Below, one piece after another: positions 32,852 through 51,522 of a DNA stretch of 64,000 nt. A program made the translations under genes and the position numbers. The stretch covers positions 1,259 to 65,258 of the forward strand of contig CAMCUY010000003.1 in the NCBI GenBank assembly GCA_945879075.1. Direction: 5' to 3'. How positions within the stretch are numbered: the stretch's first letter is position 1; every line of letters begins with the position of its first letter. The notes beneath the pieces are model-generated. The model had not been told where the DNA came from. It searched no databases and worked only from the letters and a program-made list of their open reading frames with translations. This DNA is from Akkermansia muciniphila. GTDB lineage: Bacteria > Verrucomicrobiota > Verrucomicrobiia > Verrucomicrobiales > Akkermansiaceae.

Positions 32852-35422
32852 TCAGGCCTCCTTCGTCTTCGCGGCTTTCTTGGCGGCGACCTTTTTCACG
32901 GGGCGCGGCGGGAAGTCGAAGCCGATCTTGCCGTCCTTCACGTCGAAGGTGAGGTGGGCGTCGAACTTGCGCTTGGTGCGGTTGGAGACGAAGCCTTTGA
33001 GCACGTCGGTCTTACCGGTGGAAATGAGCTTGAGCATCTGGTCCTGCGGGATTTCGCACTGGAGGATGGACTTGCCGATGCGGATGCCGTGCGGGTCCTT
33101 CTTGGTGATGATTTCCGGGACGTGATAGGCCTTGTCGGTGGCGTAAACCTTGTAGGATTTGCCTTCTTCGGTTTTCGCCTCGCCGATGAGTTGCTCTTCG
33201 GTCAGCTCGGGCGGGCCGTCACGGTCGTCGTTTTCGAAGACGAAGTTGATCTTGAATTTCGCGTCTAACTCAAGGGCGGCGTCGAAGGGTTTGTTGAACT
33301 TCGAGCGGAAGCCGGTGAGCGGGCCGACGTGCTTGGTGGTGAAGAGTTGGATCGCTTCTTCCTCGGTGAGCAGGCGGCCGGCGATGTGTTTCTTCGCCTT
33401 GAATTTGCACTCGGGCTCGCGGCACTCATAGGTGGCCTCGGTTTGTTTGAGGCTCGGCGCGCCGCACATCGGGCAGGTGACCTTGAGATCGGGGAATACT
33501 TCGCTTTTCGCGAGATCGGCGGCGGAGCGGGCTTTGGTGCAGATCTCGTCGGTGTAAGCGATGATCTCCTTCATGAAATCGCCACGCTTAAGATTCCCCT
33601 GCTCCATCTGGCGGAGCTTAAACTCCCAATCACCGGTGAGTTTGGGCGAATAGAGTCCTTCGATTTCCATCTCGCGGACGAGATTGATGAGGCGCATGCC
33701 GGCTCCGGAGACGAAAAGCTCGCGGCCTTCGCGGGCGAGGTATTTCTGGGAAATCAGGCCTTCGATCGTGGCCGCGCGGGTGGCGGGCGTGCCGAGACCG
33801 CGCTCGGCCATGGCTTCGCGGAGTGCTTCGTCGTCGATGAGTTTGCCGGCGCCTTCCATCGCGGAAAGCAGCGTCGACTCGGTCATCCGGGCGGGCGGCT
33901 TGGTTTCCTCGGCGAGGACTTCAACGGATTCGGTGTGGGCAGGTTCACCGACGCTGACCGGGCAGAGCTCGTCTTTTCCGGCGGCGACACCGGGGCGGCG
34001 GCCGTAGACTTCGAGCCAGCCGGGTTTCACCAGGATGCGGCCTTCGGTCTTGAAGGTGTCTGAAGAAACAGGCGAGACGCCTGTGCCCCTTTCGCCACTC
34101 TCGATGCGGGTAAGGCGCGTCGTCTGCTCGAACTCGGCGGACGGATAGAAGACGGCGATGAAGCGCTTCACGATCATGTCGTAAAGCTTCTGCTCGGCCT
34201 CGCTGAGTTTGGCGAACTTGCCGGTCGGGATGATGGCAAAGTGATCGGAGACTTTCTTGCTGTCGAAGACGCGGCGCGATTTGTGCAGGCGCGGGCCTTT
34301 TTCATCGCTGCCGGAGAGCACGGCTTTGGCGTATTTCGCCACGTCGAGGCCGCTGTTGCCGACGTCCGCCATCGTCTCGCGGACGTTGCCGGTGTAATCT
34401 TCCGGCAGATACCGCGAATCGGTCCGCGGGTAGGTGATCATCTTGTGCTTTTCATAAAGCGCTTGGGCGATCTGGAGCGTGCCCTTGGCGGAAAACGGTG
34501 CCTCGCGCTGGAGCGTGGTGAGGTCGTAAAGCTGCGGGGAAATCTGCGAGTTCGCCTTTTTCTCCTCGGTGACCTTGCCGGTCTTGCCTTGGCAACGCGC
34601 TTGAATGGCCTCGGCCGTCAGCTTGTCCCAAATGCGCTCGGGCTTGGAGAGCGGGGCGTTTTCGTCCTTTTTCCAAGCTTCATCGATCCACTTGCCGAGG
34701 TATTCACCGGCCTGCACGCCGAAGGTGGCGTGGACTTCGAAATACGGCGTCGGACGGAAGGCTTGGATCTCGGCCTCGCGCTGGGCGAGGATCGCGAGCG
34801 TCGGCGTCTGGACCCGGCCGGCGGCGGTGATGTTGAATCCGCCGTGGCGGGAATTAAAGCAAGTCAGCGCGCGGGTGGCGTTGAGCCCGACCAGCCAATC
34901 CGATTCGGAGCGGCACTTCGCGGCGTCGGCGAGTGGCTTCATCGATTCGCCGGAGCGGAGGTTTTTCCACGCTTCGAGGATCGAGTCGTTGGTCATCGAC
35001 TGCATCCACAGCCGCTTGACCGGCTTGTCGATGCCGCCGATTTCCATGATATAGCGGAAGATGAGTTCACCTTCGCGGCCGGCGTCGCAGGCATTGACGA
35101 TGAGGTCGATGTCCTTGCGCTTGGCGAGCTTGAGTACCTGCTTGAGGCGGGCTTCGGAATCGGGAATCGGGTCGAGATCGAACTTTTCCGGGATGGCGGG
35201 AAGGACGCTGAAATTCCACGGCAGTTTCTTGCCGTTGGGGCCCATCGGCATCCGCAACTCGACGAGGTGGCCGACGGCGGAAGTGATGACTGCGTTTTCG
35301 TTTTCGAAAAACACATCGCGGCCGGAGCCGGACTTTTCGAACTTGCCGAGCTCCTTGGCGAGCACGCGGCTGAGGTCGGTCATGACGCTCGGTTTCTCGG
35401 CAATGATGAGTGTTTTTCCCAT
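32852..35422 (-). CDS. topB: DNA topoisomerase III
   Basis: [38 protein letters not shown] (active Tyr), [13 protein letters not shown] zinc ribbon, basic tail. Confidence 0.95.
34068..34084. repeat. REP-like palindrome within the topB coding sequence
   Basis: acaggcg-aga-cgcctgt perfect hairpin encoding TGVSPV; resembles the intergenic ACAGGC..GCCTGT elements. Confidence 0.6.
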
Positions 35423-48138: not shown

Positions 48139-48803
48139 GGTTTCAAGACCTCTTCAGCCGTGATTCCCGCGCGGTCTCCGAGTCCCAGAACATACCCATC
48201 CGCCAATCCCGCCTTGCCGGGATTTCCCGCGATGTAACGGCGGTAGTGATCAAACTGGGCCTCGCTGCGCACGATGTGATCGAACGTCTCCGCCTGCCAG
48301 AGAGTGCCGGATCGTCTGAGAGTCTGGTTGATCATCCGCGCGCTGGCACCCTTCCACCGTTGGAGAATGGTTCCCAAAGTATGCTTTTCCAGTGGCTCTA
48401 TCAGAGCGTGGATGTGGTTGGGCATGATCACCCATGCGCCGATCTGATAACCTTTGCCGTGGCCTGACATGAGTTGTATGGCGAGGATTTCTGCGATCTG
48501 CGGACGAGCGAGGAGGGATTCGCCATGACCTGTGTCCAACAGTTCGTGAAACCGCGCGGTGAACTCTCTATGGAATGCGGTTCGTTCTGTTTCGGGGAGG
48601 TCGTCGGCACAGCCGTCGGGTGGCAGGCCGTGATCAGTTAGCCAGAGTGCGCGTTGTGCTTTCCATCGCTCCATGACAGTGCGGGGGACCGAATCCGCGA
48701 GGCGGGTGGTGATGAAATAGGTGCGACGCCATTGGCGCCAGTGAGGGAGATTAAGATGATGCCGGTGAACGGATTCATTCCCGTTGTAAGGGGTGAAGGG
48801 CAT
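48135..48803 (-). mobile_element. REP-associated tyrosine transposase (RAYT, HUH Y1 family)
   Basis: LPHW, TYFITTRL, WVIMPNHIHAL (HUH), WQAETFDHIVR, YIAGNP (Tyr); flanked by REPs on both sides. Confidence 0.92.
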
Positions 48804-51480: not shown

Positions 51481-51498
51481 TTTTAGGGAAAATGAAGC

Positions 51499-51522
51499 AC
51501 AGGCAGGAATGCCTGTATCACG
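51499..51522. repeat. Short REP-like element, family 2, copy 2
   Basis: acaggca-ggaa-tgcctgt perfect hairpin followed by atcacg. Confidence 0.75.

Follow-up and report, generated by a model that had tools for sequence, protein, structure and literature searches.

The stretch of DNA analysed here, hereafter the window, comprises 64,000 nucleotides of an Akkermansia muciniphila metagenome-assembled genome (MAG; 2.39 Mb in 135 contigs, 61.6% G+C, 90% complete). It carries on its minus strand an intact topB gene (32852..35422) encoding an 856-residue DNA topoisomerase III, and within this gene a short palindrome that a first-pass annotation had described as an element resembling repetitive extragenic palindromic (REP) sequences, inserted in frame. 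The gene was identified from its open reading frame (ORF), Pfam and NCBIfam matches and alignment. The Pfam domains Topoisom_bac, Toprim and Toprim_Crpt (two repeats) were found in its product. The best NCBIfam model was NF006032, 'DNA topoisomerase III', with a score of 1039 bits against a cut-off of 1058; a 12-residue insert of the kind described below may suffice to push a genuine topB below this naming threshold. The best solved relative was the E. coli Topo III (PDB 1D6M/1I7D) with 257 bits, topoisomerase I (Topo I) scoring 86 bits. Tyr331 of the TYPR motif aligned with the catalytic Tyr328 of E. coli Topo III, and the equivalent of the decatenation loop, aligned to E. coli residues 502-519, was conserved; the invariant columns were read from a 35-sequence alignment. 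As the type IA core, the active-site tyrosine, a closer match to TopB than to TopA and the decatenation loop were all present, the product is by sequence a topoisomerase III.

The palindrome was located at 34068..34084 as a perfect hairpin with a 7-bp stem and a 3-nt loop, ACAGGCG-AGA-CGCCTGT on the plus strand and ACAGGCG-TCT-CGCCTGT on the coding strand of topB, and was presumed to be a transposase recognition structure. It is contained in the in-frame insert AGTGGCGAAAGGGGCACAGGCGTCTCGCCTGTTTCTTCA (34061..34099, minus strand), which was delimited from protein and DNA alignments of orthologs and from codon usage and encodes S442-S454. The claim that this stretch uses codons rare elsewhere in the gene was borne out by both the codon counts and the base composition. 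Outside the 13-codon insert AGT (0/42), AGG (0/49), TCT (0/42) and TCA (0/42) were absent, ACA (1/53), CCT (1/44) and GTT (2/43) were nearly so, and the G+C content at third codon positions was 0.46 in the insert versus 0.82 in the remaining gene. As single-stranded DNA the hairpin was of modest stability (-7.3 kcal/mol, z -2.1).

The insert was then compared with approximately 230 TopB sequences (30 orthologs from relatives, 80 further species and 120 protein clusters). The gap expected at this loop was observed: most of the set carries 2 or 6 residues, against 14 in the window. The two-residue loops read EQ, AQ or EA, and a deeper group has six residues (xHPSLT); L005-L007 and most of the 80 species and 120 clusters have EQ or AQ at the position of the 14 residues. 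Among the 30 orthologs, the long loop occurs only in the window and in three other species, between ...TRLTRI(E) and D(T)FKTEGR..., while three equally close relatives (G004, G013 and G005, 89-93% identical) have just a Q. The closest empty-site relatives reach 92-95% identity to the window protein. At the DNA level, 39 nt replace one CAR (Gln) codon of the empty-site sequence ...CGCATCGAGCAGGATACCTTC..., a net gain of 36 nt or 12 residues. The cleanest event was recorded in the allele L103, where a 36-nt block stands between CAG (Gln) and GAC (Asp). The insert was identical in all 13 within-species protein variants (98-100% identity, several sources), and hence it is fixed in the species and is no assembly artefact.

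In the alignment with E. coli Topo III, the insert fell on a turn joining two strands (...CVIEL and DIAKGKFVAKARF..., approximately residues 424-438), the downstream strand reading DIAKGKFVAKA. Domain II of the Sulfolobus enzyme comprises residues 220-277 and 408-474 (bioRxiv 10.1101/706986), and by homology with that enzyme the insert would lie in the second segment of this domain. An identity with the decatenation loop was rejected, since that loop corresponds to E. coli residues 502-519 in domain IV and the insert to residues ~428-433. The acidic loop was rejected as well, being located in the first segment of domain II (bioRxiv 10.1101/706986). An AlphaFold (AF2) model was built from a 35-sequence alignment (at least 77% identical) and was used for local secondary structure only, its predicted local distance difference test (pLDDT) being 63.7 and its predicted template modelling score (pTM) 0.34; a strand was predicted at 436-441, a coil at 442-453 (pLDDT below 50 over 443-452) and a strand at 454-459. 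Both the alignment and the model thus place the insert at a beta-hairpin turn, away from the active-site tyrosine and the decatenation loop.

The palindrome is not confined to topB. The pattern ACAGGC-N5-6-GCCTGT was found twice in the window (34068 and 51499), when 0.01 occurrences were expected from 100 dinucleotide-preserving shuffles. In the whole genome, 15 ACAGGC...GCCTGT hairpins were counted on 14 contigs, and no 7-mer stem recurred more than three times in base shuffles of the genome; as the MAG is 90% complete, these copy numbers are lower bounds. Eight hairpins with a 3-nt loop form family A, to which the topB copy belongs (34062..34093, minus strand), a unit of 32 nt reading GAAAGGGGC-ACAGGCG-TCT-CGCCTGT-TTCTTC. 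The other seven, with a 4-nt loop, form the sister subfamily B, represented in the window by an intergenic copy at 51494..51521 (minus strand GTGAT-ACAGGCA-TTCC-TGCCTGT-GCTTC; palindrome ACAGGCA-GGAA-TGCCTGT at 51499-51516). The stem core shared with this second element, which had been pointed out before, was therefore present at both sites as ACAGGC...GCCTGT. The topB copy was identical over ~30 nt to a copy in pheT (C100:1721). Its hairpin and left arm were identical to the copies that flank a REP-associated tyrosine transposase (RAYT) domain in leuS.

A chance palindrome in an ordinary variable loop, or a mis-assembly, was considered in this context. The length of the topB loop does vary across the family (2, 6 or more residues), as a chance origin would allow. 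However, the two matches in the window against 0.01 expected and the ~30 nt shared with copies in other genes speak against chance, and a mis-assembly is contradicted by the same insert in 13 independent protein clusters, drawn from several metagenome sources, and in related MAGs. This explanation was refuted by the repeat family and the ortholog data, and its probability is negligible.

Further, family A was found to be mostly intragenic. Of the eight copies, seven occupy open frames of Pfam-verified genes, two of them in leuS and one each in topB, thiC, pheT, a nuoG-like gene and a DUF3516 gene. Six of them encode (G)TGV(S/L)PV and one, on the opposite strand, TGETPVP, all read in the register ACA-GGC. 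A scan for the hairpin and for TGVSPV-like peptides, as had been advised, hence revealed a dispersed repeat whose copies would be translated in housekeeping genes. In four relatives the unit was additionally found in frame in the monomeric isocitrate dehydrogenase (IDH), in UvrA (two species), PolA and Fmt, and those relatives also have it in frame in topB, thiC, pheT and leuS. Among 12 distinct verified intragenic sites, the ACA-GGC register was used at 11. An exclusive reading register was nevertheless rejected, as a copy in a ClpX-like gene of G023 is read in another register, and the second hairpin of the doublets of the G001 type (...STGVPPVSENGRPACS...) contradicts it too. All six frames of the unit are free of stop codons, so that the bias in register most likely reflects which peptides are tolerated.

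The candidate mobilizing enzyme was found within leuS of the same genome, on contig C109 (1-2364), outside the window. Two inverted family A units (C109:416-432 and C109:1049-1065), 633 nt apart, bracket an in-frame segment of ~215 residues, located between ...DLPIRQVV and LEEAFTETGTAINSGFLDG..., that matched Pfam Y1_Tnp (E 1.5e-7) and NCBIfam REP_Tyr_transpos (E 1e-18, 67.5 bits, cut-off 80). The segment carries the motifs RRNLPHW, MPNHVHVV and ISYVEENP, and its HxH and Tyr motifs were kept in five species. No Met codon was present in the peptide just upstream of the domain, and thus the RAYT is probably made only as a part of LeuRS. The 'REP-like' label was upheld by this arrangement, in which a RAYT transposase domain of the same genome lies between two copies of the unit.

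The leuS cassette was also recorded in relatives, at G014:C119, G017:C189, G023:C33, G007:C75 and G010:C72, in frames of 951-1138 residues. In G014, G017 and G023 a continuous leuS-RAYT frame is accompanied by ACAGGCG hairpins. In the other two both arms of the flanking stems are altered, reading GTGGGCG/CGCCCAC in G007 and TCGGGCG/CGCCCGA or ACGGGCG/CGCCCGT in G010. In G001 the RAYT was lost and two hairpins of the GTGGGCG type were retained, 22 nt apart from stem end to stem start (SVGVSPTSS-MASKL-VGETPTLLE). A short unrelated linker occupies the leuS site of G005, G012 and G013, and no RAYT was found in leuS of six genomes devoid of family A (G004, G005, G012, G013, G018 and G019). Out of 31 sampled genomes of the genus, five contain the family A hairpin (G000, the genome under study, G001, G014, G017 and G023) and 23 lack it; the few pattern matches of G007, G019 and G046 had different centres in nearly every case. 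The matching leuS cassette was present in four of the five family A genomes (G000, G014, G017 and G023). This co-occurrence indicates that the repeat and the cassette travel together, with G001 as a partial exception. It was also observed that, in the genome under study, an intergenic tandem at C14:9149-9200, directly after a TAA stop codon, consists of a family A unit followed by a GTGGGCG-TCT-CGCCCAC unit. The stem of the latter is that found around the leuS cassette of G007 and G001, and both stem types therefore coexist in one genome.

The stems were further examined in a set of 24 position-defined copies, consisting of the leuS flanks and the topB alleles. Four of the seven stem pairs were changed on both sides, in 17 cells, and 99.4% of the cells were paired. 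Such compensatory changes are indicative of selection on the hairpin as a nucleic acid. No G-U intermediates occurred among the 24 copies, which weakly suggests a hairpin acting as DNA.

Based on these data, the palindrome in topB is best explained as a copy of the REP-type mobile repeat family A, belonging to a REP/RAYT system of the Akkermansiaceae/'Luteolibacter' lineage, a reading to which we assign a probability of approximately 85%. A short stem-loop palindrome, a dispersed multi-copy distribution and inverted copies around a RAYT are all features of REPs that family A displays; the extragenic location typical of REPs is not. The proposal that a repeat had given rise to a loop insertion in a core enzyme was thereby sustained by the gap in the orthologs, the dispersed in-frame repeat family and the position in a turn.

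Several observations weigh against this conclusion. The stem foot of family A is ACAG (GGGGC-ACAG-GCG) rather than the classical GTAG, the variant in relatives being GTGG (G001 and G007), and other REP families of the same genome do begin with GTAG. The copy number (8 + 7) is low compared with the hundreds in Pseudomonas or E. coli. Since G001 holds family A copies and no RAYT in leuS, the pairing of enzyme and repeat is not one-to-one. In topB a Gln codon was replaced rather than the sequence plainly split. Lastly, the AF2 model is poor overall, and the loop may face either solvent or the central hole.

It was proposed that family A units are moved by the RAYT, by analogy with TnpA-REP and the IS200/IS605 enzymes. 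Its binding and cleavage of the repeat may be inferred from the HxH and Tyr motifs and from the covariation of flanks and copies. Like TnpA-REP and the TnpA of IS608, the RAYT would bind the hairpin in single-stranded DNA, cut beside it and rejoin the ends, and in this way a unit could be moved or copied with no target duplication. Selection would then purge all copies except those that are in frame, read in a benign register and placed in a tolerant loop. The topB copy may have survived for several reasons: its length preserves the frame (net +36 nt), the unit is free of stop codons, the ACA-GGC register yields the Gly/Thr/Ser/Pro-rich peptide GTGVSPVSS, and the site would be a beta-hairpin tip in domain II, away from the catalytic tyrosine, the Toprim site and the decatenation loop. 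Judging from the conservation of the gene, TopB most likely works as before, with an additional floppy loop of 12 residues. Once the hairpin has decayed, such loops might persist as ordinary, freely evolving protein sequence.

An alternative origin of the solo copies is templated repair or gene conversion, in which short units from other REP loci would enter loops, or overwrite older and decayed units, by microhomology-mediated repair, the RAYT being only incidentally linked. At the pheT, DUF3516 and nuoG-like sites, relatives hold linkers of nearly equal length that resemble decayed or different REP types. At the nuoG-like site an ACAGGCA-type unit in G000 (GTGILPV) stands opposite a GTGGGCG-type unit in G001 and G004 (SVGVSPT), which resembles 'rewriting' more than insertion. 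Neither a target duplication nor a common target motif was found: no duplication occurred at nine filled/empty junction pairs, and no motif was shared by the empty sites of topB, thiC and leuS. The missing duplication is, however, equally predicted by Y1/HUH transposition. Moreover, the repeat is confined to genomes that have a matching RAYT cassette now or had one recently, and its stems co-vary with the hairpins that flank the cassette itself. Templated repair was accordingly regarded as improbable.

The topB loop was occupied more than once. REP inserts were found at the same loop in at least ten related species and with differing junctions, namely ESGERG.. in the window, EGS.. in L073, EGS..SENGRLACS (a doublet) in L072, ESN.. 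in L075, EGVKQGG.. in L080, DGMKEGG.. in L082, VTEERG.. in L089, AQEERG.. in L103 and IHGT.. in L140. The allele L074 carries a family B doublet in another reading frame (SDAGIPACSDSSPTGKNACIT). In a tree of 45 topB sequences, from which the loop had been left out, 10 state changes were needed for the 10 filled alleles, each of which stands beside an empty allele, and a single clade of the nine family A alleles was rejected (difference in log-likelihood 791, p 1e-94 in the approximately unbiased (AU) test), although one-gene trees can be blurred by recombination. At the thiC site, too, G000 and G001 hold inserts whose junctions differ, and G005, G012 and G013 have none.

A single ancient insertion in topB, spread by short-patch homologous recombination or precisely lost many times, could produce a similar picture. 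Y1 enzymes of the IS200/IS605 type excise seamlessly, and the cluster P0067 has the exact junction of the window at only 86% overall identity. A further hint was given by the codon following the Asp after the loop (window 34058-34060, Asp455-Thr456). Of the 60 two-residue alleles, 14 had Cys at this position, compared with none of 18 long-loop alleles (Fisher p 0.03 for alleles that are not independent), a pattern which could result from a target preference, from selection against Cys beside a floppy loop or from a hitch-hiking codon, the last being what a spreading patch might leave. On the other hand, the alleles have dissimilar junctions, and in one of them the loop is filled by the other subfamily, read in a different frame. 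When the flanks from +-60 to +-240 nt were compared, filled alleles resembled each other no more closely than they resembled empty ones, and hence no shared recombined patch was detected in that range, patches below ~60 nt being beyond the test. Repeated precise loss would also have to recreate the ancestral Gln codon. This codon is uniformly kept in the empty alleles and mostly missing in the filled ones, and therefore repeated gain is more economical than precise loss. A single origin was thus considered unlikely.

Some loops of further clusters bear on the fate of the inserts. Among protein clusters with related topB loops, some retain the full motif. Loops of the type ..SAGVSPASS.. look like compensated stem variants at the peptide level (compare GCAGGCG/CGCCTGC in G017), and DSSKEGGRDVPPVF and EGLKEAGPGVPPVS look as though the motif were decaying. 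If the latter readings are correct, the loop outlives the hairpin, which would support the earlier suggestion of a route to new protein sequence. Two other alleles differ in structure. In L009/L115 the insert has no recognisable hairpin (SHSSLPAPSSPLI), and in L140 an insert of 27 residues starts with the family A hairpin (IHGTTGVPPVWDDSRPGGQSSATPPAS), from which it follows that the topB loop tolerates at least 27 extra residues.

It was also considered that the loop or the hairpin is retained as useful, either the loop by modulating Topo III (partner binding or gate dynamics) or the hairpin by acting on topB mRNA or on local DNA topology. Occupation of the loop extends to at least 10 species and to many further protein clusters, its sequence is invariant in the 13 within-species variants, the hairpin is maintained by compensatory change, and REPs of E. 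coli bind gyrase, as cited in PMC3733652. Nevertheless, the closest relatives thrive without the insert, filled and empty sisters alternate across the tree, and the same peptide occurs in the unrelated ThiC, PheT, IDH, UvrA, PolA and Fmt. The region folded no better than shuffles in its mRNA context (z -0.02). The conservation of the hairpin is accounted for by the constraint on the repeat family itself, and the DSSKEGGRDVPPVF and EGLKEAGPGVPPVS alleles appear to decay at the peptide level. A beneficial role was hence judged very unlikely.

The recurrence of the REP-type repeat at one codon position points to either strong targeting or strong filtering of insertions. A bolder proposal can be made tentatively, at somewhat less than even odds: the topB loop may be one of several fixed 'landing pads' re-targeted by a coding-adapted REP/RAYT system, whose transposases would persist as non-splicing in-frame modules in essential genes, expressed solely within the host protein and shielded from deletion. 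Candidate pads would be TopB, ThiC, PheT, the NuoG-like protein, UvrA, PolA, IDH, Fmt and LeuRS, of which repeated hits were demonstrated for TopB only. In relatives, REP units or doublets were observed in frame in uvrA-like genes (G001:C81 and G017:C146) and in polA (G001:C112). As uvrA and polA are also hosts in the cases of PMC3733652, conserved tolerant sites in repair proteins are suggested.

REPs inside genes have been published before. In the work of Di Nocera et al. 2013 (PMC3733652), intragenic GTAG REPs were most numerous in the verrucomicrobium Opitutus terrae. Repair genes and tRNA synthetases were frequent hosts in this species and others, and GTGG-type degeneration was noted in O. 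terrae. The present repeats resemble them in being RAYT-linked short stem-loops in frame in known genes of the same phylum, in occurring as single units or dimers that add ~10-30 residues, and in the high frequency of repair/replication and tRNA-synthetase hosts, here TopB, UvrA, PolA, LeuRS, PheT and Fmt. They differ in the stem foot (GTAG there, ACAG in family A) and in the share of intragenic copies, 7/8 for family A; repeated independent hits on one codon position and a RAYT inside a housekeeping gene were recorded here and not in that paper. Neither the text of PMC3733652 nor those of its supplements that were searched as text mention topoisomerase III as a host. The topB insert is thus a fresh and clear case of a published but seldom documented route by which proteins acquire loops.

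The first-pass annotation had compared the insert with the Rickettsia palindromic elements (RPEs; Ogata et al. 2000, via PMC10969869 and PMC3733652), which are likewise in-frame palindromes in unrelated housekeeping genes that add fold-compatible peptides. The comparison holds for the event, the frame being open through the topB insert and six other copies. It does not extend to membership in that family. RPE-1 elements measure ~100-150 bp and encode 30-50 residues, whereas the family A unit has 32-39 nt and 12-13 residues; RPEs have no known dedicated transposase, occur in Alphaproteobacteria with reduced genomes and have no sequence relationship to family A.

A closer likeness was found to the REP/REPIN-RAYT 'REPtrons' of E. 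coli, Pseudomonas and Stenotrophomonas (Nunvar 2010; Bertels and Rainey 2011, PMC3116915; PDB 4ER8). These share a Y1/HUH gene bracketed by inverted repeats, the presence in one genome of several RAYT paralogs that each have a separate hairpin family, and compensatory evolution of the stems. In contrast, their repeats are extragenic and number hundreds and their RAYTs are free-standing, when ~5-15 copies per family, mostly coding, were recorded here. The IS200/IS605 elements (IS608 and ISDra2) provided the model used above, with the same enzyme superfamily, recognition of hairpins in single-stranded DNA, no target duplication and seamless excision. They are, however, autonomous and insert 3' of a defined tetra- or pentanucleotide, and no such motif was found at the topB, thiC and leuS sites. 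A miniature inverted-repeat transposable element (MITE) was rejected, because MITEs have terminal inverted repeats of 15-30 bp and a target-site duplication, whereas the present unit consists of one short hairpin between dissimilar flanks and showed no duplication.

Other REP/RAYT systems were observed in the same genome. A free-standing RAYT gene (48195..48770, minus strand; G000:C3:49453-50028) with its own, differing flanking hairpins (GTAGTCCAGGACTTCAGTCC...) matched NCBIfam REP_Tyr_transpos (E 3e-22); it is not the cognate of the topB repeat, and it illustrates that several REP/RAYT systems exist in this genome. In-frame Y1_Tnp domains were additionally found in alaS (C87:4486-7965; flanking hairpin family ACACGCG-GCCC-CGCGTGT), in metH (C6:17612-21154; GTAGCGGCGATCACCGGTCGCCGC) and in ispG/gcpE (C87:3-2429; TGGGACT-TCC-AGTCCCA). 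Of the six RAYT copies examined here, four were thus nested in essential genes, the one in leuS included. A solo hairpin of the ispG family lies in frame in a purL-like gene (C26:12505, a 1260-residue frame with FGAR-amidotransferase domains) and is read ..GEIVAGTSSPSQIP... At least four further hairpin families of low copy number (GTGGACA, GCGGACA, ATGGACG and CCGGCTG, 6-11 copies each) have the layout ..TAAGGGG-NN-stem-loop-stem and stand mostly right after stop codons, in the classical extragenic position of REPs (for example C4:388, C4:467, C91:465 and C62:1047).

Quentin et al. (PMC6006769) described RAYT genes that contain in-frame REPs, and set aside 'unexpectedly long' Y1 proteins, which they took for fusions or errors. 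The RAYT domains in leuS, alaS, metH and ispG yield 'over-long' proteins of that kind. A search of the literature for RAYT genes nested in housekeeping genes returned no description. Apparently undescribed in the literature searched are thus topB as a host, the approximately tenfold independent occupation of one loop and the in-frame RAYT cassettes in essential genes.

The topB case combines an empty-site outgroup, some ten independent hits on one codon position, compensatory stems and a candidate transposase. It illustrates how core enzymes of free-living bacteria, and not those of Rickettsia alone, acquire loops from selfish hairpin repeats. As the recurrence is either targeted or filtered, it amounts to a natural experiment on the insertion-tolerant loops of Topo III and other enzymes, which would be useful for protein engineering. 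Were the nested cassettes active, an essential aminoacyl-tRNA synthetase would at the same time carry a DNA-cutting enzyme. Should the proposal of fixed landing pads prove true, the REPtrons embedded in proteins and the site-selective solo hairpins would constitute a distinct lifestyle class of mobile DNA and would repeatedly supply core enzymes with new surface loops.

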